A stretch of DNA of 64,000 nt from Lama guanicoe (taxonomy: Eukaryota): assembly GCA_013239625.1 (NCBI GenBank), contig MU053559.1, positions 3,722,607 to 3,786,606 of the forward strand, in the 5' to 3' direction. The translations under genes were made by a program, and so were the position numbers. The notes beneath the pieces were generated by a model, which did not search any database, was not told the DNA's origin, and worked only from the letters and a program-made list of their open reading frames with translations. Positions within the stretch are counted from its first letter, which is position 1. Every line of letters begins with the position of its first letter. Of the stretch, positions 10,480-63,720 are shown one piece after another.

Positions 10480-13400
10480 AAAGATATTTCCCACCCACAC
10501 TATCCTTCACATCCTCTAACATTATTTGTGGCTAATTACTGGAAGATATCATGCCTCAACTATTCATCCTTCCATGGAAACAGCCTAAATGTCCATCAAC
10601 AGATGATTGGATAAAGAAGCTGTGGTATATTTATACAATGGAATACTACTCAGCCATAAAAACCAACAACATAACGCCATTTGCAGCAACATGGATGCTC
10701 CTGGAGAATGTTATTCTAAGTAAGCCAGAAAGAGAAAGAAAAATACCATATGAGATCACTCATATGTGGAATCTTAAAAAAAACACAAACAAAGCATAAA
10801 TACAAAACAGAAATAGACTCATAGACATAGAATACAAACTTGTGGTTGCCAAGGAGGTGGAGGGTGGGAAGGGATAGACTGGGATTTCAAAATTGTAGAA
10901 TAGATAAACAAGATTATACTGCATAGCACAGGGAAATATATATAAGATCTTATGGTAGCTCACAGAGAAAAAAAATGTGACAATGAATATATATATGTTC
11001 ATGTATAACTGAAAAATTGTGCTCTACACTGGAATTCCACACAACATTGTAAAATGATTATAAATCAATAAAAATGTTAAAAAAAAAAGTAAAAAGAAAA
11101 AACTATTCATCCTTCCAGTCTGTCCCCATCCACTGTAACTCATTCTTGAAAGAAACCACTCCCCACATCCTCCCCCTTCATCCTTTCCCCCCATCTACTG
11201 TGGCTCATTACTGGAACGTATCACCGTCCTCACCAACCATATCTCCTATCTCCTCCATACACTATGGCTCATTCCTGAAAGATACCATTCACCAAATCAT
11301 CCATCCTTCCTGTCTCCCCTGACTCCAACACTGCGGCTCATTCCTGTAAGATACCAACCAATCCCATACCATCCATTGGTCCTGTTTTATACAATTCATT
11401 GCGATTCACTCCTGGGACATATATCCTCCCCCTATTCACATGTCTGATCTCCACTCATCCACTGTCCTCATTTGTGGAAGATATATCATCCCTCAATACC
11501 ATCCATCAGTCCTGTATCTCCCATCAACTGGCTCATTCCTTTAAGATACCATCCACTCTTCCTGTCTCTCCCAACAACCAGTTCATCCTTGGATGATAAC
11601 AATCGCCCCCCAATCCCTCCTGTGGCTTATTCCTTCAAGATACCACCCCCCAAATCACTCATCTATCCCATGCATACAGCCCATCAGATGTGGCTCATTT
11701 CTTCATGATACCTTGCACCCACATCATTCACCCTACCTGTCTCCTCTCACAATCACTGTAGTTCATTCCTGATGATACCACCCCTTCACACCATCCATTC
11801 TTCCTGTAATTCCCCCACTCCAAGCACTATGGTTCCTTCCTGGAAGATATCATCACACCAATGGCTTCCTGTCTCCTCCTAACCACAGTATCTCATCCTG
11901 GAAGCTACCATTCCCTCACTGTATACTGCTATACCCCCATCACTGTGGCTCATTCCTGGAAGATACCACCCACCCCTTCCTGTCTCCCCTACCCACTGTG
12001 GCTAATTCCTGGAAGATACCATATCCTCACACCATCCACTATTTCTGTCTCTCCCAACAAGTGGCTCATCCTCAGAAGATATCATCTTAACATACAATCA
12101 ACCCTTCATCTCCCCACTTTTTACTATGGTTCATTCCTGGGCCACACCATCTCCTCACATCATCACTCTTCCTGTCTCCCCTACATACTATGGCTCATTC
12201 CTGGCACATACCATTCCCTCACATCATCCATCCTTTCTGTCTTCCCCATTCCTAGAAAATATCATCCCACCATAACACTCATCCTTCCTGTTTCCCCCAT
12301 CCACCGTGGCTTATTCCTGGAGGATGTGGTGAGGGGTATCTTCCAGGAATGAGCCACAGTGATGGGGAGGAGACAAGATAGGTGGAAAGATAGAAGATGT
12401 TGGAGGATGGTATGTAGTGCATGGGGGTGGGGGAGGTGGGGAGACAGGAAGAGTATGAGGAAACGGTATCATCCAGGAATAAGCTACAGTGACTGTGAGG
12501 GGAGATAAGCAGGGTGGAAGATACTCATTTGGCTTTATTCCTGGGAGATATCATTCCTTATTATATTTACTATTTCTATATCCCCCATCAACTGCAGTAT
12601 TCCTGCTAGATACCACCTCCTGCCACAGTTCATTTTTCTGCTTTCCCCCATCCACAATGGTTCATACCTGGAAGATACCATATTCCCACAACATCCATTT
12701 TCCCCTATCTACCACCATCCACTGTGACTCATTCCTGGAAGATGGCATCTCATATCATCCATCACTCCTGTCTGGAAAATACCATGCCCCTACATCATCC
12801 ACCCTTCCTCTCCACCCCCTCCCCAGTCACTATGGCTCATTCCTGGATGATACCATTCCCTTACAGCATCCACTCTTCCTGTCTTTCCCATTCACAATGG
12901 CTCATATGTGGAAGACACCGTATTCCCACACCATCCATCCTTTTTGTCTCCTCCCCATCGACTATGGCTAACTCCTGGAACCTACTCTCCTCCCATACCA
13001 TCCATCTTCCTGTCTCCCACATCCACAGTGGGACATTCCTGGTAAATACCATCCTCCCACAACATCCATCCTTCCTGTCACCTACCATCCACTATGGTTT
13101 AATCCTGAAATATACCATCTCCTCACACCATTTACTCTTCTTGCATCCCCTGATCTACTGTGGTTCATTGCTTAAGGATACCATCCCACCACACATATCC
13201 TGTCTCCCCCAGGGCACTGTGGTTCATTCCAGGTAGATACCAATCCAGGAAAACATCCATCCTCACTGTCTCCCCCTACACACTGTGGTTCATCCCTGGA
13301 AGATATCATCCTCCCACACCATCCATTTTCCCATACACCACCATCCACTACGGCTTATTCATGGAAGATAATATCTCTCACACCATGCATCATTCCTGTC

Positions 13401-14920
13401 TCCCCCAAACACTTGTCTATTCCTAGAAGATACCTTGCACCCACATCATCCACCTTTCCTGTCTCCCCCTATAGTCTCTGTAGCTCATTCCTAGAAGATA
13501 TCCTCCTCTCAAACCATCCATCTTTCCTGTTGGCCCCTCCCTACAAGTCACTCTCCTTTATTGCTAGAAGATTCCATTCAAACTTCTAGTCTGCTCCCAA
13601 AACTGACTCATTACTGGAAGATAACATCCCTTCACACCACCCATCCTTGCTGTCTGCCCCTATTAACTGCATCTCATTCCAGGAACATAAATCCCCCTAC
13701 ATCATCCATCATTCCTATTTCCCCCATCCACTGTGGCTCATTCCTGGAATATACCATTTCTGCACACCAGGCACCCTATCTCTCCCACCCCATCGACTCT
13801 GTCTGACTCTGGAACAACTATCTATCTTTCCTGTCTCCCTCATCCACAGTGGCTGGTTCCTGGTAGATACCATACACTCTTCATGTCCCCCATCATCAGC
13901 TATGAGTTAACCCTTGAACATACCACCCCCCACACCATACACCTTTCATGTCTCCCCCATGCACTGTGGCTCATTCTTGGAAGATATCATCCCTTCACAA
14001 CTTCCACCCTCTCCTTCATCTACTATGGCCCATACCTAAAACATAACATCATGATCCATCCTTCCTGTCTCTCTTTTGTACTGTGACTCTTTCCTGGAAG
14101 ATATCATTCCATCATTACCATTCCCCATCTATCCCCATCCATTGTGGCTCATTCCTGGAAGATACCACCCCCTCATACCATACTCATCCTGTTTCCCCAT
14201 CAACTGACTTACTCTTGGAAGATACCATCTCTTCACATCATCCACTCTTCTTGTCTTCTCCATCAACTGACTCATTCTTAGAAGATAACTTACACACATA
14301 CCATCCCTCTTTCCTCTCTCTCCCCATCCACTGTGGCTCACTCCCCATCATTTCACTACATTACTCTTATATCCTCCATCAACTGGCACATTTCTTAAAG
14401 ATACTATCCCCACATCACACATCCTCCCCACCTCCCCTCATCCACTGTGGCTTATCCTGGAAGACCACCACATCACCCATGCTTCCTGTCTCTACCTGTG
14501 CACTATGGCTCATTCCTGGCACATACTATCCTCCCACACCATCACCTTTCCTGTTTCCCCTGTCAATAGTGGCTCATTCCAGGAAGATACCATTCGGCTA
14601 CACCATCCACTATTCCTGTCCCCCACATACATATGGTTTACTCCTGAACATACCAACCCCACACACCTGATCCATGGTTTATGGCTCACTCCTGGAAGTT
14701 ACCATCCCACCACACCATATATCCTTTGTGTCCCCTCTCGTGCACTGTAGCTCATTCCTGGAAAATACCATCTCGCCTATCCACCTTCCTGACTCCTCAT
14801 CCACTGTGGCTAATTCCTGAAGATACCATCACCTCACACCATCCAATCTTCCTTCCTCCCCCATCAAATGGCTCATTCCTGGCAGATACCATCTACACAC
14901 CCCACCCATCTTTCTTGCAA
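10480..14920. repeat. Degenerate minisatellite, unit ~60-65 bp, in MAOA intron 5
   Basis: Dozens of diverged copies of ccatccactgtggctcattcctggaagataccatcccctcacaccatccatccttcctgtctccc. Interrupted by an L1 and by an inverted block at about 12325-12516. Confidence 0.92.
10575..11100 (+). mobile_element. 5'-truncated young L1 (end of ORF2 plus 3' UTR) inside the minisatellite
   Basis: WKQPKCPSTDDWIKKLWYIYTMEYYSAIK is the L1 ORF2 C-terminus. Poly(A) tail; exact 17-bp TSD aactattcatccttcca at 10558 and 11101. Confidence 0.93.
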
Positions 14921-15264: not shown

Positions 15265-15506
15265 CTGCAGAGATGAGAAGGGCCCATATTCAGGTATGAT
15301 GGTTACTGCCCACTTCCCTGCCAAGATGTCCTCAGGAGAACTCTGAAAACTGGTTTCTCTGTCTATGTTGGAATGTGTGATTGGCATAGAATCCTATGTA
15401 TAGAAAGTGGTAGAGTTGGGATGGATAGCTCTTTGGATTCTATGCCTTAATGCTGCTGTCAAAATAATAATAATAATAATAATACACATATGTGTAAATT
15501 AATATG

Positions 15507-44435: not shown

Positions 44436-46215
44436 AAAATGCAGCATCAGATTCAGCAGGTCTGGGACAGGGCCTGAGATTCTGCATTTCTATCAAGCTC
44501 CAGGGTGATTCTGAGGCTGCTGGCCCACTGGACACTTAGAGCTGAGCAAAGTGACAACAGGCCTATGATACAACCCTGTATTAACTAAAAAGGCAGGAAG
44601 TGAATGACAGAAGGGGAGCCTGGTTTGGTGTGACTGAAAGAGCAGGTGCAATATCCTAGTTCAGATGTTGCTGGATGGCTACTTCGTATCCATTTGTATT
44701 CCCTTTCCCATGCCTGCTTCTTTTATGCCGCCTGGAGATGTTAAATACTTGCTTTCTCAGGCTCCCAAGGAGCCAAGGGTAGCTATGTGCCCCAATTCTG
44801 GCCAAGGAGACTAAAGCAAATGTCTGCTGGGGTCTTCTGGTAAAGGAAAAGCTTTGTTGCAGGTAAGACTTGGGCCGCCTCTTCACGCTCTTTCCTGCCA
44901 TGAATGAGGACTTGATGCTGAGGGATGCTGCAACCATCTGGTTACCACTAGGCAATAAGCCAACAGGCAAAGAATGGTGGAGCAGAGAGACAGAAAGAGC
45001 CTAAAGCCTTGATGACAAAGCTGAATCCTTGCACCAACTTAAACTACTTCCCCCAGGCTGCTTCTTATGTAAAATAATTAAGTGTTTGTACTGCTTAAGC
45101 CATTGTTATTGTCACCGAATAAGGCATTCTGTTCTAAGTCTGATGCATCTCCTAATTAGCCAGATGCTTCCTCTCCCTCCAGTCACTTCAACAGTCTGGT
45201 TTTGTCCTTACTGCCAATCCCCAGCCTCTGACACTCTATTTGTGTGCTCCAGCAAAGGGTCTCATTAGTGACCTTCTAACTGCCAAACACAAGGGCCTCT
45301 TCTCAGCCTTCATCCTGTTAGATGTCCCTGGCATTTGATTTTATTTAGACTCCCTTCCTCTCCTCTGCTGATTTTCATGTCACTGCTCTAATCTGGTCTT
45401 CTTCCTCTGCCTCCACTGCTTCTCTCTGGCTCCTCTGCCTCTGCCTGCCCCTCCCCCTAAATTTGCATGTTCCCCAAACTTCCATCTTTGTCCCTATTTC
45501 CTTCCCACCCTACATCTCCCTATGTACTCTCATCAGTTCCCACAGATTCAACAACCTGCACCCATTTCTTTAAGTAGCAGTAAAGTACTAGTTAGCCTGT
45601 ATTTTTCCAGAATGGTGATGTAAGCCTTAGTATGAAAAGGCAGTGATGGAGCAAGAACTGGGCTTCCTTCTCATGTCTCATTGACCTTATGTGAGCAAAG
45701 AGGCTCTCTGGCAGCAGCACACCTCTTAGGGAACAAGGAATAAGGAAAAAGTTACCCAGAAATATGTTACATTTGCTTCTGCTTACTGTAGTCACACTTC
45801 TTTTAAGTTGTGTATCCTTGGATAAATAAACAACGAATGTGTACTAAGCATGTATGAATTAAATGTGTGTGTGTGTTGTGAGTATATAGTCACTTAAAGT
45901 CCAGCCAAACTATAATCCCAACTGAGACACTACGTACTCTTATTTAGGTCTTTAGTATGGAAATTATGACACCGTGTTGCAGTTATCTGTTCATGTTTTT
46001 TTCCTTCATTAGAATGTAAGCTACTGAAGGTCAGAGGCTGTCACTCTTTGGTGGGTGTTTGTTGAAAAGAATAGCCATTTAATGCAGGAGTTTAGGGCTA
46101 TGGGGGACAAATGGCTTAACTACATGAACTCTTGAGATTCCCTCTAGCTCTGTGACCTCCAATGACCCCACTTCTAGTTCATGAGATTTTATACGCAAGT
46201 ATTAAAATTATTTAC

Positions 46216-46310
46216 CCTCACTGTATATGTTCTTCCTCCAACTCTGTCCCGAGCTTCTAAAACCAAAACATTAACTCCATGTTCATTTAAGAGTTTGGCA
46301 GCAGACAATC
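46216..46310 (-). CDS. MAOA: MAOA exon 2 ([31 protein letters not shown])
   Basis: Hand translation; 95 nt; acceptor TTTTAG, donor GTAAAT. Not in the ORF track. Confidence 0.97.
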
Positions 46311-47410
46311 CTAAAAGGAAAAAATAGGAGAACAAAATCGAGGAACATATTAATATCTAAATGTGAAACAGCCACGATTTAACCAAAGCCTGCATATAAT
46401 ATAAATGCAGGGCATCATACACAATTCATTGATTTTGCTGTCTATCTAGTAAATTCTGACCACACTGTGATTCACTGAGCCACCAATTGTATAGTCTATC
46501 GTATATTACATTGTCTATCATAATTTTATTTTCTATCATAAGGTTGGCTGAAAAAAAAGTGATAATTATTAAAATATAGATTTTTGGTTTACTGATAATC
46601 AAATCATATTTAAGAGAATTTGTTGAACACCTAATCAGTCCTTATTATGCCCGTCTTCAAGAAATCCTGATTGTATGAACAGAAGTATGTTTTCTTGGAA
46701 TCTTCTCCCAGCTACTTCAGCTCCCAGTATACCTGTCCTTTTCTTAATTTAAACCCCTCGCCATCATAATTGCCTATTATTTATATCTGGATTACATGCT
46801 TGCTTGATCTTGTTTTCCCCACTAGATTCAAAGTTATCAAAGGCAAGAACCATGTTTCATACTTTATTTATTGGCTCATAGCTGAGTACAGGCTTTCACC
46901 CATGAATAAAAACTTTCATAAAAGTTAAACCCAGCTTAGTAACACCAGAAAGTAGAGGAAAATGTTGTGGATTAACATTATATCAAGGGTGCATGCTGTC
47001 AGCATGACTTATCACTGATGTTAATCTTGATCACCTGGTAGAGGTAGTCTTTGGCAGGTCTCTCCACCGAAAAGTTACTCTTTTCTTCCCCCTTCCATGC
47101 TACACTCTTTGGAAGGAAGTCTGTGCACAGCCTGCACTTAAAGAGTAGGGAGTTATGTCCTACTTCCCTGAGGGTGGAGGATCGACATAAATTATTTGAA
47201 ATTCTTCTGCCCAGATTTGTCTCTTCTCTCCCATTAATTTTTTTAGTCAATCATTTATTTATATTTTATGGACACATAGATAGTTGTTTTATACTTCGGA
47301 TTATAATCCAATACCATGTTATTCATTCTGTTGTTTGAATTATTACACCTTTGGTCAATGGAAGCTCTTTCAGTTGGCTTCCATGTCCCTTTGACATGCT
47401 TTCATCATTT

Positions 47411-58139: not shown

Positions 58140-59230
58140 AAGAAACAGAGACAGAAGATAAGTTCAAATTGTCAGATATAGATTATAAGCTCTACAGGAG
58201 AGAAAAATCAAGCAGAGCCAGAATGATCAAGGAGAACAGATTTAATCAGGTATTGAAGAAAGGATAGGCTGGAAATGTTCAGAGAAGCACTTCCGTGTTA
58301 AGGAAAAAACTAAAACAGGGAAGGAATAGAGGGACAAAATAAACATGGTGTAGCACTGAGGACAAGAGAGCAGTGTGACTACAGCCATGTTGGGGATGGT
58401 AGGAAATGCTGCTTGTCCAACAAAGGGGATGCTAGATAAGTGGGGTGTGGAGAGGGGAGCTTAAGAAGCGGACAATAAATCATTGAACGTCCTGAACAGA
58501 ACAAGGTGATAAAAGAAGTGTTTAAAAAAATCAAATCTGGGAGAACACTGCAGGATGGACATGAAGGGAGAGCCCAAAGTGAAGGGTGGCCACTGGGAAG
58601 ATGGTCATAACCTGGTGAGCTGAAGGGGCTAAGAGTCTGTCCTGGGGATGGGGGAAGAGTTACTGGGAAAGAAAGAGAGGAACAGCCCAAAGAAGGAGTT
58701 AGAAGGATCTGCTGACTGGGTGTAGAAGATAAAACAAAAGGATGTGTCCAAAATGATGGAAAGGATGGTGGTGCCAAGAACAGAGTCAATGAAATGAGGA
58801 AGAGAAGCTGGGTTGGAGGGCAAGGAGGCTTTTGGACTTGTTGAATATGAAGTAAGAACAAGACTTTCAAGCGTGAAATATGCAAGAGCAGATAAGCTAT
58901 AGGACAGGAGTCCAGAGAAAGTGAAGGACTCAAACTAGAGATTTGAGAGCTCTCTGTAGATGAGGAAAAGTTGACATCTTGGAAGAAGAGAGGGAGAGAG
59001 TGCATATGAGCCCCAAAGTGATGAAGAGCTGAACCTCGAGGCCTTTTCAAAACTAGAAGAATGGGCACAAGAATATGGGCACAATGACAGGAACAGAAAA
59101 AGGAGCAATTGGTGTGGGATAAAAATTCAGGATCCAATAGGGTCGCAGGAAGCATGAAAGAAGTTTCAAAAAGGACTTGATGACAGATGATGGATGATGG
59201 ATAAGAGCCACAGCATGTTGAAGATACCAC
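58140..59230. mobile_element. L2 LINE remnant
   Basis: Purine-rich, decayed L2-like sequence; accounts for the spurious 283-aa minus-strand ORF. Confidence 0.55.
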
Positions 59231-61900
59231 TGTACTACTTACAAATGAGTAGGGCTTTTTCCTTTCTCAACTACCGAGTGTCTAAGATTATTTAATTGGT
59301 GAGTGGGCAGAAAAAGGGATTTTGTGGCTGAAATACATGCTCTGTTTTATGATTTTTAATTAAGATGTTGCTATTCTTTGTGCAGACAGAGATAGTTATA
59401 AAACGTTACTTTGGATTGCTTTTGAGGAACATTTAGTCAGAATTTGTAGTCTTCTGGGAGCTATTTTGTTATACAATAGGAATAATCCTGCATATACTAA
59501 GTATTGGCCATATATTTTAAGTATGTGGGTATCATATTAAAATGTGCAAGTCCTGACAAAAGTTATAAGAAATATCCAGAAGCGTTTAAAACTGATATAG
59601 GGGCTATTAAGTAACTCATGGGATACTGCTAAGCACACACAAAGATGATGTGTTTCTAAGTTCTCAAGAACCCTTAGGAAGTAATACCTCTCACCTGCTC
59701 ATGAAACGCCAGTCTGTGTGCTGGGTTTATCCTGAGCCAGACTTGCATCTACTTTTATTTTAGTTGTGAACCATCTGGCAAGACATCACAGCCAGAAAGC
59801 AAGGTTTCTGGTCAGTTTTGGTGTTCAGATCAAATCTGACTGATAAGAAATGATATTAAAGGAAGCCCAGTGTCTTCCACTGTCACTGATGAAATGGAAG
59901 CTGGGTTCTGGAATAGAAGTGTGAACTACCGTGCAAGAAATGCCCTCTTCTTCCCCCAAATGGAAATGAACAAATTAGTCATTGGTAGTGACCATAGAAA
60001 GATTCAGGTTGAGGAGCCTGAAGCTTATATAATTGGGGTGCCCTCTCTAGGAAAAAAAAGAAGGCAAAATTTCAAAGACAAGATTCAGTATGAAACTGGT
60101 TATTTAGAATGAGAACCCAGAAAGACCTGCAGTTGTAAGGTCATAAAGCATAAGCATCATCAGCTACACTGTAAATCCAGCTCTGCTCACGACCAACTAC
60201 TTGGAGTAAAGTGTAGAAAAGGAGAAAAAGAGCCAATAATCAGGCAGAGGGAAAAATGAAAGACAAAATGCCCCTTAAGGAATACTGGAGCACAGAACAA
60301 AAAAAGACAAGAATAAAAATCCCAGAAAGAACCCTGAATTGTGAAATATGGCTGGTATGGAGGTGGGAATGGAGACAGAACTCCCAATCAATTTACACGT
60401 CATCACCATATTTATTTTCCCATGATCAATAATCATGTTGCTTCTAGGAGGCTTAAACAGGTTTTTAGAAACACCAGTCCACTTTATTGCAAGCACTTAA
60501 CAAGTGTTTGTTGACTGAATGAATCAAAGTTAACCAATGAATGAAGAGGAAACAAGGGAGACACTTCTTTTTTCGTACTCTCCACCAGGATCTGCTTTCC
60601 TGATGCTCCAAAATACATGCATGTTTTTGCTGGCACTGGCTAGAGTTGTCAAAGCAACAGCTCATGCCAATCTCTTCTCTGGTGACTAAGACTGTTATCC
60701 TAAACAGGCCAAGTTAAAAGCTATCTCCACTCAAAATTAATTTGTAAGCAGTTTCTCAAAAGGATTGTACATAAAAATGGCTACTTTGGGACACCCTATT
60801 TACTCCCTCCCACCTTATTTCTCCCTCTTACTAAATCAGATCCTTCAGGTTTATTTCAGAAATTAACCTCCTCCCATGTCTTGGACAGATTAGTGTGGGA
60901 CTCTAGCTAGAGCTGAAACACAATCCCTAAATTTCAAACATTTTACCAATGATGACAACATAAGTAACAATTTAATATATCAGTCAGTATGAGATTTCCA
61001 GGAAGATTCAGAAAAACCTCATGCACCACTCAGTTGGTCAGCTACAAACTCAAACCAGGACCAGGGGAACCCAGGATTGCCAGCTGCTCATCACAGGACA
61101 AGATTCAGGCCCTTGGGGAAGGACACAAACATACCATTCCTCTGCCCCTGCTTCTCACAGAGGGATTCCATTTGAGCAACAAATGCCCTGCACTTTCCTG
61201 CAAGTTCTTAAAAAAGAAAAAAAAACCAAAAACGGCTAGAGTAGGTTAAAACTAAGAGCTCTCTCCTCCCCGCCTATTTTAAAAACCTTTTCCTAAATGA
61301 TTCTTCCTCCTTCCTGTTCAGTTACTAAATTTTCTAAGGAAAAGCGCTTTAAGAAGAGCAGGACCTGAAAAACACGATTACTACCTCAATATTACAAAAA
61401 TCCATATACTGTTGTTCTGTTTAGGGCAAAGGATGTGAAACCAAGTGAGGCAAACCAGCCACCTTGGGAATTAGGAGTGAGGGTCTTAAATGGGAGAAAA
61501 TCACTGTCACTTCCCGGCCAGGCGGTCTGACCTCTGGATTGTTACCTCAGTTTCTTGGTTTTGTAAAACAGTGACAAATATACTGCCCGCCTCACGGGAC
61601 CGCTGAGGACTGAGAAAATCCACGTAAAGTGCTAAATATAACCGTACGGCAAGAGCTCCTTAAATGTTAGTATTTAATAGTAGGAGTAAAATGATTGTTC
61701 CTGCCTCCTGCAGTTCACACCACCAGCAAAACCCGCTCAACCCCACTCTCTCCTCGCGGGATCAGGGGCCCGACCGCTGTTGCGCTCTGTCATGCACAAG
61801 GGAGACCCCCCCCCAAAACGCCACCTAGCTAGTGCAAGTCCCTCCCCCGCCCCCCGGGCCGGCCAGGGTCCCTCAGGCTACCGCTACCGTCCACACTGAC

Positions 61901-61973
61901 CTGAGATGCCGCCTCCTATCACGACTACGTCGAACACTTGGCCCGCGTTGTCAGCCTTGTCCTGATTCTCCAT
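61901..61973 (-). CDS. MAOA: MAOA exon 1, canonical coding part (MENQDKADNAGQVFDVVVIGGGISG; FAD-binding GxGxxG)
   Basis: ATG at 61973 in strong Kozak context (AGC ATG G). 73 coding nt end at the donor CAG|GTCAGT. Matches the MAO-A N-terminus. Confidence 0.97.
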
Positions 61974-63197
61974 GCTCTGGTTGAGACTCTCCCGGGGCGT
62001 GGGTACAGGAGTGGGGCTGGCCAAGGGCGGAGCGGACTTTTCTACCGACTCTCGGGGGGAGTCCGAGGGCGGAGCCGATTCTTCCACCGATACCCGGGCG
62101 GAGCCGGGCGCTGAGGGCGGAGCGGACCCTTGGACTGGTACTCTGGGGGAACCCGGGGGTGGAGCCGATCCTTCTACCGATGTTCGGGGACTACCTAACT
62201 CAGAGAGTTCGGTGGACAGTTGAGTCGACACTGGGGAGTTCATGGGCGTACGAGGTCCCTGTATCAAACTCCAGGGGCTCCTGAGCACTCGGGGCGGGGG
62301 AGGGCCTTGTATCGACGCTTGGGAGGAGTCCGACAGGACGACAGATTCTTGTCCTGAACTCCCAGGGAGGCTGAGGTCTGAGGGCGGGTAGGACCCTTGT
62401 ATCGACTCTAGGGAGGAGTCCAAGAGCCGGGGGAAGTCGGGTATTGAGAACTGGCTGGACTCTTGTACTGGCAGTCGCGGGGGGTTGTTGAGGGTAGGAG
62501 GTACTTCTACCGAACTCTGGGAGGAGATGGATAGTGAGGACGGGACGAGCCCAAGTAGTGACATTTGCGGAATATTACGGGATAGAGGAGGTGACATTAT
62601 TCTGATGGAGTCAGGCATCGAGGGCGAGATGGATTCTTGTACCGCCGCTCTGAGGAACTTTCTGGGTATAGGAGTCCCTGCTACCCGGGGGAACCCAGGT
62701 ACTGAGGATGGGCCGGACTCATGGAGGGGCAACCTGGAGGAGCCTGAGGGCGAGACAGATCCCTGTTCGGATACCCGGGGGATGCTGGTGTCCGGGTTAG
62801 AGGCTGGGACGGCCCCCTCAGAGTTGGGAGAACGGGTGACAGACATGGGGATCTGGTCGCTAAGGCGGAGGGCGCCAAAGTCCCAGAGGCCAACCTTGGT
62901 GTTCGGGTCAGTTGTCAGGTCAAAATCCGTGCTTATTTGGGCGGACGCGCTGGCGCTTTGGGAGTATGTCACGTCTGGTGTGGACTCGTTCGACAGGGAG
63001 CTGGAAAACAGTCCGGAGACGGTCCGCCACTCAGATTGCATGCTCCACTCGGGAGTGGAGGGCAAGGCCGTGCCCAAGGTGGAGGCCGGGTCCGGGATCT
63101 GGGCAGTGGTGTCCCCGGCTCTGGGTGGACGCTCGGCCTCGTGCCGTCTCTCGCCGCTGTTGTTGCTGGGGGAGGCCTCTGAGTTGTGGGCGCTCAT
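61974..63197 (-). CDS. Putative 408-aa Ser/Pro-rich N-terminal extension, in frame with MAOA exon 1
   Basis: ORF 63197->61884 has no stop. ATG 63197 is 1224 nt (408 codons) upstream of the canonical ATG. An in-frame TGA at 63249-63251 closes the frame upstream. Translation is not demonstrated. Confidence 0.5.
62020..62170 (-). promoter_or_regulatory. Proximal MAOA core promoter: tandem GC boxes (Sp1/KLF) in a 42/48-bp (90-bp) repeat
   Basis: GGGCGGAGC at 62025, 62067, 62096 and 62115; GGGTGGAGC at 62157. The human MAOA core promoter is known to have two 90-bp Sp1-site repeats. Confidence 0.8.
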
Positions 63198-63199
63198 TG

Positions 63200-63720
63200 T
63201 TCCGGAGTGCGCGCGGGCGGCGGTGCTGGGGGCAACTTTCAGCTCTCCTCAGGCCCTCCCTCTCACAGGCGCTCGCCTCTCCCGCCCAAGCTGTTCCCGA
63301 TCCGCCCTCTCGGAGACCTGCCTCGGGAGCCCCGCCCACTTTGAGGGGGCGACGCGGCGCTGAAGCGGCCTGGCCCCGCCCTTCCCGCCTGTACGCGGCG
63401 CGCGCGCGCGTTGGGGGCGCACTCCCGCCCGGTAAGGCCGGACGACGCCACCGAAGTGGGGGTGTGGCTGGATGAAGGTGTGGGCGGGGACACGTGGGGG
63501 TTTCAACCTGGTGCTTTTATTCTTACACTTTAACTAAAATAGGACTGGGCGGAGGGCGTCGGGGGTGGGTTTAGGGAAGCCGGTACTGAAGAAAGCGGAC
63601 CCGGACCGCGAACTCGCAAGGCGCCCCCCCTCACACACCTGGTCTGGCCCCTTTGTGACGTCACAAGGGGCCGGTGAGGTCTGCGCAGTCGCGCGCCCTC
63701 CTTGTGGGGGGAGGGGTGAA
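63200..63720 (-). promoter_or_regulatory. Distal CpG-island promoter-like region
   Basis: Dense CpG with several GC boxes, a (CG)n run near 63398-63410, an E-box CACGTG at 63491 and a full CRE TGACGTCA at 63656-63663. Confidence 0.7.

Follow-up and report, generated by a model that had tools for sequence, protein, structure and literature searches.

COMT, a catecholamine enzyme, is the nearest analogue of the locus described here. It occurs in membrane-bound and soluble forms: a distal promoter serves the extended form, and the proximal promoter overlaps the coding sequence of the extension, which is ~50 aa long and forms the membrane anchor. LRP5L offers another likeness, its upstream coding sequence having been disrupted in the human lineage but kept by other mammals (PMC9789052); MAOA was not found in the main text of that survey of upstream extensions or in the supplements searched.

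MAO-A is a major drug target, and the uVNTR of its gene is among the most studied behavioural polymorphisms (the 'warrior gene'). Its mechanism is disputed: deletion of the uVNTR left total MAOA mRNA unchanged (PMC5874270), and results from uVNTR reporters conflict (PMC6390082). The human core promoter consists of two 90-bp repeats with four Sp1 sites (PMC7892552; PMC5671571), for which Sp1/KLF binding and promoter activity have been reported in human (PMC5671571; PMC7892552), and the human promoter is called bidirectional in the title of a reference (PMC7892552). In human cells, RT-PCR shows a minor MAOA mRNA, 5–8% of the total, that arises from a start site ~1.3 kb upstream (PMC5874270). This mRNA contains the uVNTR, in a region called 5′ UTR (PMC5874270; PMC6617726), and the uVNTR counts as non-coding in a 2025 review (PMC12776774). 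Where these papers deal with the isoform (PMC5874270, PMC6617726, PMC12776774), its leader is described as 5′ UTR or non-coding VNTR and its protein is predicted to be N-terminally shorter.

Here, we describe the MAOA locus of the guanaco, most of which is contained, on the minus strand, in the 64-kb stretch of DNA analysed (the window). Immediately before the canonical ATG, its promoter has the human 42/48/42 layout of four GC/GT boxes. In contrast to the human core promoter, which is treated as non-coding in the relevant parts of PMC7892552 and PMC5671571, the four guanaco units form the end of an array of ~15 units and belong, as codons, to an ORF fused to the enzyme. The human upstream-TSS isoform (Ensembl 204) is an mRNA that spans the whole region, like the predicted placental long mRNA, whereas the same leader reads as an open frame in other placentals and predicts a longer protein. 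Compared with COMT, the MAO-A extension is longer (~400 aa), repetitive and variable in length, and has no hydrophobic stretch. The observation is real, conserved and surprising; the long protein itself is a predicted one.

In kind, such an arrangement is already known, both as extended isoforms from alternative promoters and as coding VNTRs. What appears to be new is the size of the extension, its dual use across placentals and the link to the uVNTR, although an earlier description is possible. Searches of the open full-text literature turned up no account of a long MAO-A, of a promoter that also serves as coding sequence or of a coding uVNTR. Unreviewed RefSeq and UniProt models of the same predicted protein exist (alpaca XP_006213459.2, rat G3V9Z3, marmoset XP_054107473.1 and the cat 'mucin-19-like' models); no paper was found that treats such automated models as one conserved isoform or ties them to the promoter or the uVNTR.

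A long open reading frame fused to MAO-A

The gene is identified as MAO-A by exon 1, with its GxGxxG start, and by nine further exon matches leftward. The canonical ATG (at 61973) and the 73 coding bases of exon 1, where the GxGxxG motif begins, occupy 61901–61973 on the minus strand and are followed by the exon 1 donor GT (61900–61899, minus strand). Exon 2 (46207–46311, minus strand) lies 15.6 kb downstream, and exons up to the tenth lie further left. Two features were noted within introns: a purine-skewed patch in intron 1 (58379–59266) with a 295-aa minus-strand stop-free frame, possibly a repeat remnant, and a C-rich tandem repeat (12821–14620; 63–68-bp units, about 11 copies and further blocks) between the exon matches at 15267–15139 and 9763–9617.

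Upstream of the canonical ATG and in frame with it are 408 stop-free codons that begin with an ATG at 63197 (extension ORF, 61974–63197, minus strand). They lie in the minus-strand open frame 63248–61884, which holds the repeat peptides quoted in the original prediction. Together with exon 1, the long ORF is identical at 433/433 positions to residues 1–433 of Vicugna pacos XP_006213459.2 (935 aa), and thus already exists as an automated annotation in the alpaca. The extension is Ser/Pro-rich (37% S+P), with 14 S/T-P sites. Its start codon (63195–63197, minus strand; context ACAATGA, with A at −3) holds a position common to mammals from armadillo through camelid. Codons 10–15 (63153–63170, minus strand) form the slot that carries a Gly-x tract in other mammals and the Thr-Gly uVNTR tract in simians; it is unexpanded in the guanaco genome. 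Further downstream on the same strand, the multi-species alignment shows a conserved SEWRT motif (residues 55–59; 63021–63035) and a conserved G-x-W-x-F-x-A motif (residues 103–109; 62871–62891), followed by a second in-frame Met at residue 118 (62844–62846), the annotated start in the hippo and reindeer models.

Over these 408 codons, the long frame has 0 stops, against 13, 11, 15, 2 and 11 in the other five frames, and stop-free Markov shuffles of orders 1–5 numbered 0, 0, 1, 4 and 0 of 4000. Seven ATGs inside the extension are in frame and one is out of frame. The frame with 2 stops is an antisense one that is also nearly open; a 323-aa antisense stop-free frame over the extension (62392–63363, plus strand) was rejected as a gene and is probably a shadow of the sense frame. 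A Pfam search of the extension returned 0 families, and the ESM atlas gave no usable match to it. A structure predicted with AlphaFold for the 935-aa protein carries no usable information (mean pLDDT 33.3), being poor even over the known enzyme domain. Some cat models carry a mucin name; identity as a mucin was rejected on the 0 Pfam families, the polar and charged N-terminus and the full MAO-A domain at the end.

Promoter boxes as codons of a tandem array

The original prediction placed four GC boxes at 62025, 62067, 62115 and 62157, and these positions and their 42/48/42 spacing were confirmed: the first three are GGGCGG and the fourth is GGGTGG, a GT-type box. An additional GGGCGG at 62096 had gone unlisted. 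The four Sp1/KLF-type boxes (62025–62162, plus strand) form two 90-bp repeats, the core promoter layout of the MAOA type. In each boxed unit, the box is the codon pair CCR CCC (Pro-Pro) of SAPP on the coding strand, so the same bases are box and codons. The boxed units encode SPRTSVEGSAPP, SPRVPVQGSAPP, SARVSVEESAPP and SPRESVEKSAPP, and the consensus peptide of the array is roughly xPRxSVQxSAPP.

The tandem array comprises about 15 units of 42/48 bp with a higher-order unit of 90 bp (62019–62783, minus strand). The more degenerate upstream copies that had been predicted were found where they had been placed, CTTGTATCGAC at 62306 and 62396 and GAGGGCGAGA at 62620 and 62746, and each of these sequences occurs nowhere else in the 64 kb. 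A DNA profile built from the four boxed units found 15 positive-scoring units from 62783 to 62019, ten of which, including the four that trained the profile, beat the best background score of 8.2. All 15 lie in the phase of the ORF, in agreement with the earlier claim that no unit breaks the frame. Their spacings are 42, 84, 84, 48, 42, 66, 48, 42, 48, 39, 48, 42, 48 and 42, and those that depart from 42/48/90 are still multiples of 3. Self-similarity diagonals scoring at least 30 had offsets divisible by 3 in 16 of 16 cases (the diagonals are not independent), the best being at offset 90; the peak diagonal score in 20 codon shuffles was 22–30. The Sp1 repeat thus belongs, as proposed, to a longer in-frame array in a conserved ORF fused to MAO-A, and it has these features of a coding VNTR or minisatellite: units that are multiples of 3, a position inside an ORF, and in-frame copy-number variation among relatives.

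The further suggestion that the boxed units are the youngest part of the array was rejected. The four-box stretch aligns across all orders with a column conservation of 0.56–0.68, against 0.35–0.55 upstream. No other part of the array is as well conserved as these boxed 3′ units, which xenarthrans have too; the units are therefore old and constrained. Recent expansions are found mid-array.

Long MAO-A models across placental mammals

A search seeded with the extension returned 20 long MAO-A models, and a census of any MAO protein of 636 aa or more returned 49 rows. Forty of these are mammalian MAO-A with an extension of 30–41% S+P, and the remaining nine are non-mammalian or unnamed proteins without such an extension. 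The 40 span 11 orders: Cingulata, Pilosa, Primates (mouse lemur, marmoset, squirrel monkey), Scandentia, Lagomorpha, Rodentia (including rat), Eulipotyphla, Chiroptera, Perissodactyla, Carnivora and Artiodactyla. At this length threshold, the census held zero catarrhine, afrotherian, marsupial or house-mouse rows. The long proteins are automated predictions, and the census sees only species annotated with a long form and is blind to those with a broken frame. Models of 527 aa share clusters with long ones in monk seal, beaked whale, lynx, puma, lion and horse.

The long models carry 167–630 extra residues, and the extension measures 272–599 aa among the full-length forms compared. The alpaca and armadillo extensions can be aligned from Met1 onward, at 35% identity across 288 columns (E 5e-16). 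Among 34 proteins hand-chosen for alignment as the long form of each taxon, 28 start in the column of the alpaca Met, although three of these shared starts (tree shrew and two geomyoid rodents, with the first 30–45 residues missing) are probably non-homologous. All 28 orthologues tested score above their own shuffles (171–1924 vs −14 to 78). Met1 and the short motifs SEWRT, GxWxFxA and PPTPxN persist across orders. After the upstream Met, Glires (pika and rodents; P0112, P0117, P0135, P0173) have an Arg-Gly (RG/RGG-like) repeat and simians a Thr-Gly repeat, and in other mammals the same slot is filled by Gly-Gly, Gly-Ser or Gly-Arg tracts that vary in length. In a metagenome pattern scan for orthologous DNA, the 600 matches listed contained one locus, an unrelated FAD-binding gene.

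Several records deserve mention for their annotation. Cat long MAO-A models P0010 and P0068 are misnamed 'mucin-19-like', and in a fruit bat (P0102), a piece of the extension is annotated as a separate 'WAS/WASL-interacting protein-like' gene. In reindeer, a single contig carries two accessions (P0096, P0131) whose extension is the same; in guinea pig, two long models of MAO-A, each of 869 aa (P0173, P0174), lie on different contigs. Both cases may reflect a duplication of MAOA.

Spliced contigs and a candidate distal promoter

Spliced contigs from two other mammals carry the extension joined to the enzyme. In the guinea-pig cluster, a 1542-nt Logan contig (P0179) starts at the upstream Met, spans exon 1 and continues into exon 2, and cannot be contiguous genomic DNA if intron 1 is long, as it is in the guanaco. 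A 4003-nt Logan contig (P0120) holds a whole spliced MAO-A with an extension of ~292 aa, which gave a local score of 144 against a shuffled maximum of 108. Since short-read contigs can fuse overlapping molecules, both attest to RNA-type continuity rather than to single full-length mRNAs. Part of the stretch was present in 20 of the 24 sequencing runs listed, five of which were recorded as RNA; these five carry another organism label and shares of 0.38–0.41, at which partial coverage and whole-length coverage in a relative look the same.

Upstream of the long ORF, a CpG-island peak (63200–63700; CpG o/e 0.91, GC 0.69) contains GC boxes at 63482 and 63547 and is likely to be a candidate distal promoter. 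Within it, a perfect 14-bp palindrome (63653–63666) surrounds the consensus CRE TGACGTCA (63656–63663), the only consensus CRE in the window, ~460 bp upstream of the ATG at 63197. This palindrome is a candidate CREB/CREM site for the putative distal promoter; with one bulge, it extends further (63646–63672).

What selection appears to maintain

Residue identity to the alpaca extension is 49–62% in pig, whales, horse and fox, and 32–40% in rodents. These levels are about those that decay of neutral DNA would give, while the frame stays unbroken. When neutral evolution was simulated to 56% residue identity, one of 1500 runs stayed stop-free with indels uncounted. Adding indels at an assumed rate of one per 14 substitutions lowers this chance by about seven orders of magnitude. 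All non-camel orthologues but one have 1–6 gaps in the non-repeat first 150 residues, and every gap is in frame.

Of 13 species pairs, 5 (Przewalski's horse/donkey, three cat pairs and fox/panda) differ in the array by whole blocks of 30 residues gained or lost, a sixth pair differs by 29 residues, and the clouded-leopard tail has a 30-residue period. Units of 90 bp or 6 bp keep the frame without any selection, and because 90 is a multiple of 3, in-frame block changes alone show none. The in-frame gaps of 1–8 residues outside the array carry more weight. Orthologues thus largely bore out the indel phase that had been predicted, with whole 30-residue blocks and small in-frame indels, the exception being one frameshifted human-type record.

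Within the units, the codon-position bias expected of coding repeats ran in the expected direction without reaching significance: mismatches by codon position were 141/123/147 of 379 (chi-square p=0.17), a fixed-register permutation gave p=0.19, and dN/dS among units was 0.70 (from non-independent pairs). Constraint on residues being weak, selection would act mainly on the frame.

The uVNTR slot and the human frame

In the marmoset long model, a Thr-Gly tract begins about 12 codons after Met1. The 30-bp unit of the human uVNTR (sequence from PMC6390082) translates in one frame to TGTGTSTRTS, a peptide of which the NCBI record P0098 holds three copies plus a half, immediately following a Met that is homologous to the start of the marmoset model. 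The 18-bp core of the papionin repeat (PMC4901440) translates to T-G-T-G-(I/M/T)-T. Length differences among the reported human alleles are 15 or 30 bp, so that all of these alleles preserve the frame; published uVNTR coordinates agree poorly with the offsets of our analysis.

One DNA read in shifted frames could give both P0098 and the human protein EAW59382.1, with unbroken compatible runs of 83, 77 and 82 codons, and P0098 is therefore termed human-type. It matches marmoset through codon 251 and is shifted in frame from codon 252, after which 68 of 89 marmoset residues are compatible with the shifted frame of P0098 (background 27 ± 5). Its ORF of 402 codons is an orphan and, by offset arithmetic, ends about 70 nt before the canonical ATG. 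On the basis of this one protein record, in which an assembly error is possible, human looks to have lost the fusion by frameshift. The missing catarrhine long models fit a real loss. A marmoset-seeded search, in which 8000 candidates were scored, listed marmoset and squirrel monkey alone.

From these comparisons, a broader scenario can be drawn, to which we give a little less than even odds. Placentals would make a second MAO-A of ~90–125 kDa with a promoter-encoded tail, in which the uVNTR would be a coding Thr-Gly repeat. A one-base frameshift would have removed this form in human and left a uORF of ~400 codons, whose length the uVNTR allele would set; in this way, the allele could act on translation and decay of the long mRNA and not on transcription. 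With the repeat coding at the start of the tail, alleles would change the protein in primates with an intact frame.

A proposed mechanism and its alternatives

The reading that we favour, with a probability of about 0.7, is that an upstream promoter makes a minor mRNA for an N-terminally extended MAO-A, and that the DNA coding for the extension doubles as the proximal promoter. MAOA would have two promoters, of which the distal, CpG-island one would yield the minor long mRNA. The first AUG of this mRNA would open a frame of ~300–630 codons running into the canonical enzyme (935 aa in the guanaco), and the short mRNA, which is the abundant one, would have its Sp1/KLF core promoter in the last ~90 codons of the tail. 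The product would be an intact MAO-A with its C-terminal membrane anchor, preceded by a Ser/Pro-rich and probably disordered tail. MAO-A is anchored by its C terminus with the catalytic part toward the cytosol, so that an N-terminal tail need not disturb targeting or catalysis, and the extended enzyme may well be active. Composition and the 14 S/T-P sites point to a disordered tail that is controlled through phosphorylation or turnover; it would most likely serve as a phosphorylatable, PEST-like cytosolic handle that alters enzyme turnover or partners in a restricted cell type. Selection would hold the frame and the start codon while tolerating most residue change, and with the frame kept and the residues free, the 90-bp units and the Gly-x tract (the simian uVNTR) could expand and contract in frame.

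The near-neutral divergence of residues, the lengths of 272–599 aa and the weak codon-position bias would also suit an inert spacer, a translated tail that is merely tolerated or clipped. With its frame open, mRNAs made from the distal promoter would not stall on upstream ORFs but could give active MAO-A or avoid nonsense-mediated decay, in keeping with the 1 out-of-frame ATG against 7 in frame. Yet loss of the upstream ATGs would presumably have sufficed for this without 400 open codons, and SEWRT, GxWxFxA, PPTPxN and Met1 are conserved across orders; we consider a mere spacer unlikely. The long protein might instead be a by-product of a regulatory mRNA that acts like a long undecoded transcript, with read-through tuning the proximal promoter. 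Deletion of the distal VNTR in HAP1 cells does raise long and lower total MAOA mRNA (PMC5874270), and the upstream ORF of the human-type P0098 stops shortly before the canonical ATG. However, a terminating upstream ORF, as in a LUTI, was found in P0098 only; in the guanaco and in the 40 long mammalian models of the census, the ORF is fused to the enzyme, and regulation of this kind seems improbable as the main explanation.

That the extension is not translated at all appears highly improbable to us. A GC-rich promoter built of 3n repeats could be open by composition, with gene predictors extending the CDS to the first ATG. Unit lengths are multiples of 3 by construction, the region is a CpG island, the boxes account for the most conserved residues, and neither a Pfam family nor a usable ESM atlas match was obtained. 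Set against this, no more than 4 in 4000 shuffles of matched composition stay open, all but one of the five other frames contain 11–15 stops, and the non-repeat first 150 codons are open as well, with a Met shared from xenarthrans to rodents.

Implications for MAO-A biology

Should the region prove to be ancestral coding sequence, a form of MAO-A that is missing in humans may be present in the rat, dog, pig and marmoset used as models, and uVNTR alleles may act post-transcriptionally. Promoter deletions and reporter constructs over the region would also change an ORF. The locus would then illustrate clearly how the same bases can serve as core promoter and as coding repeat across placental mammals.
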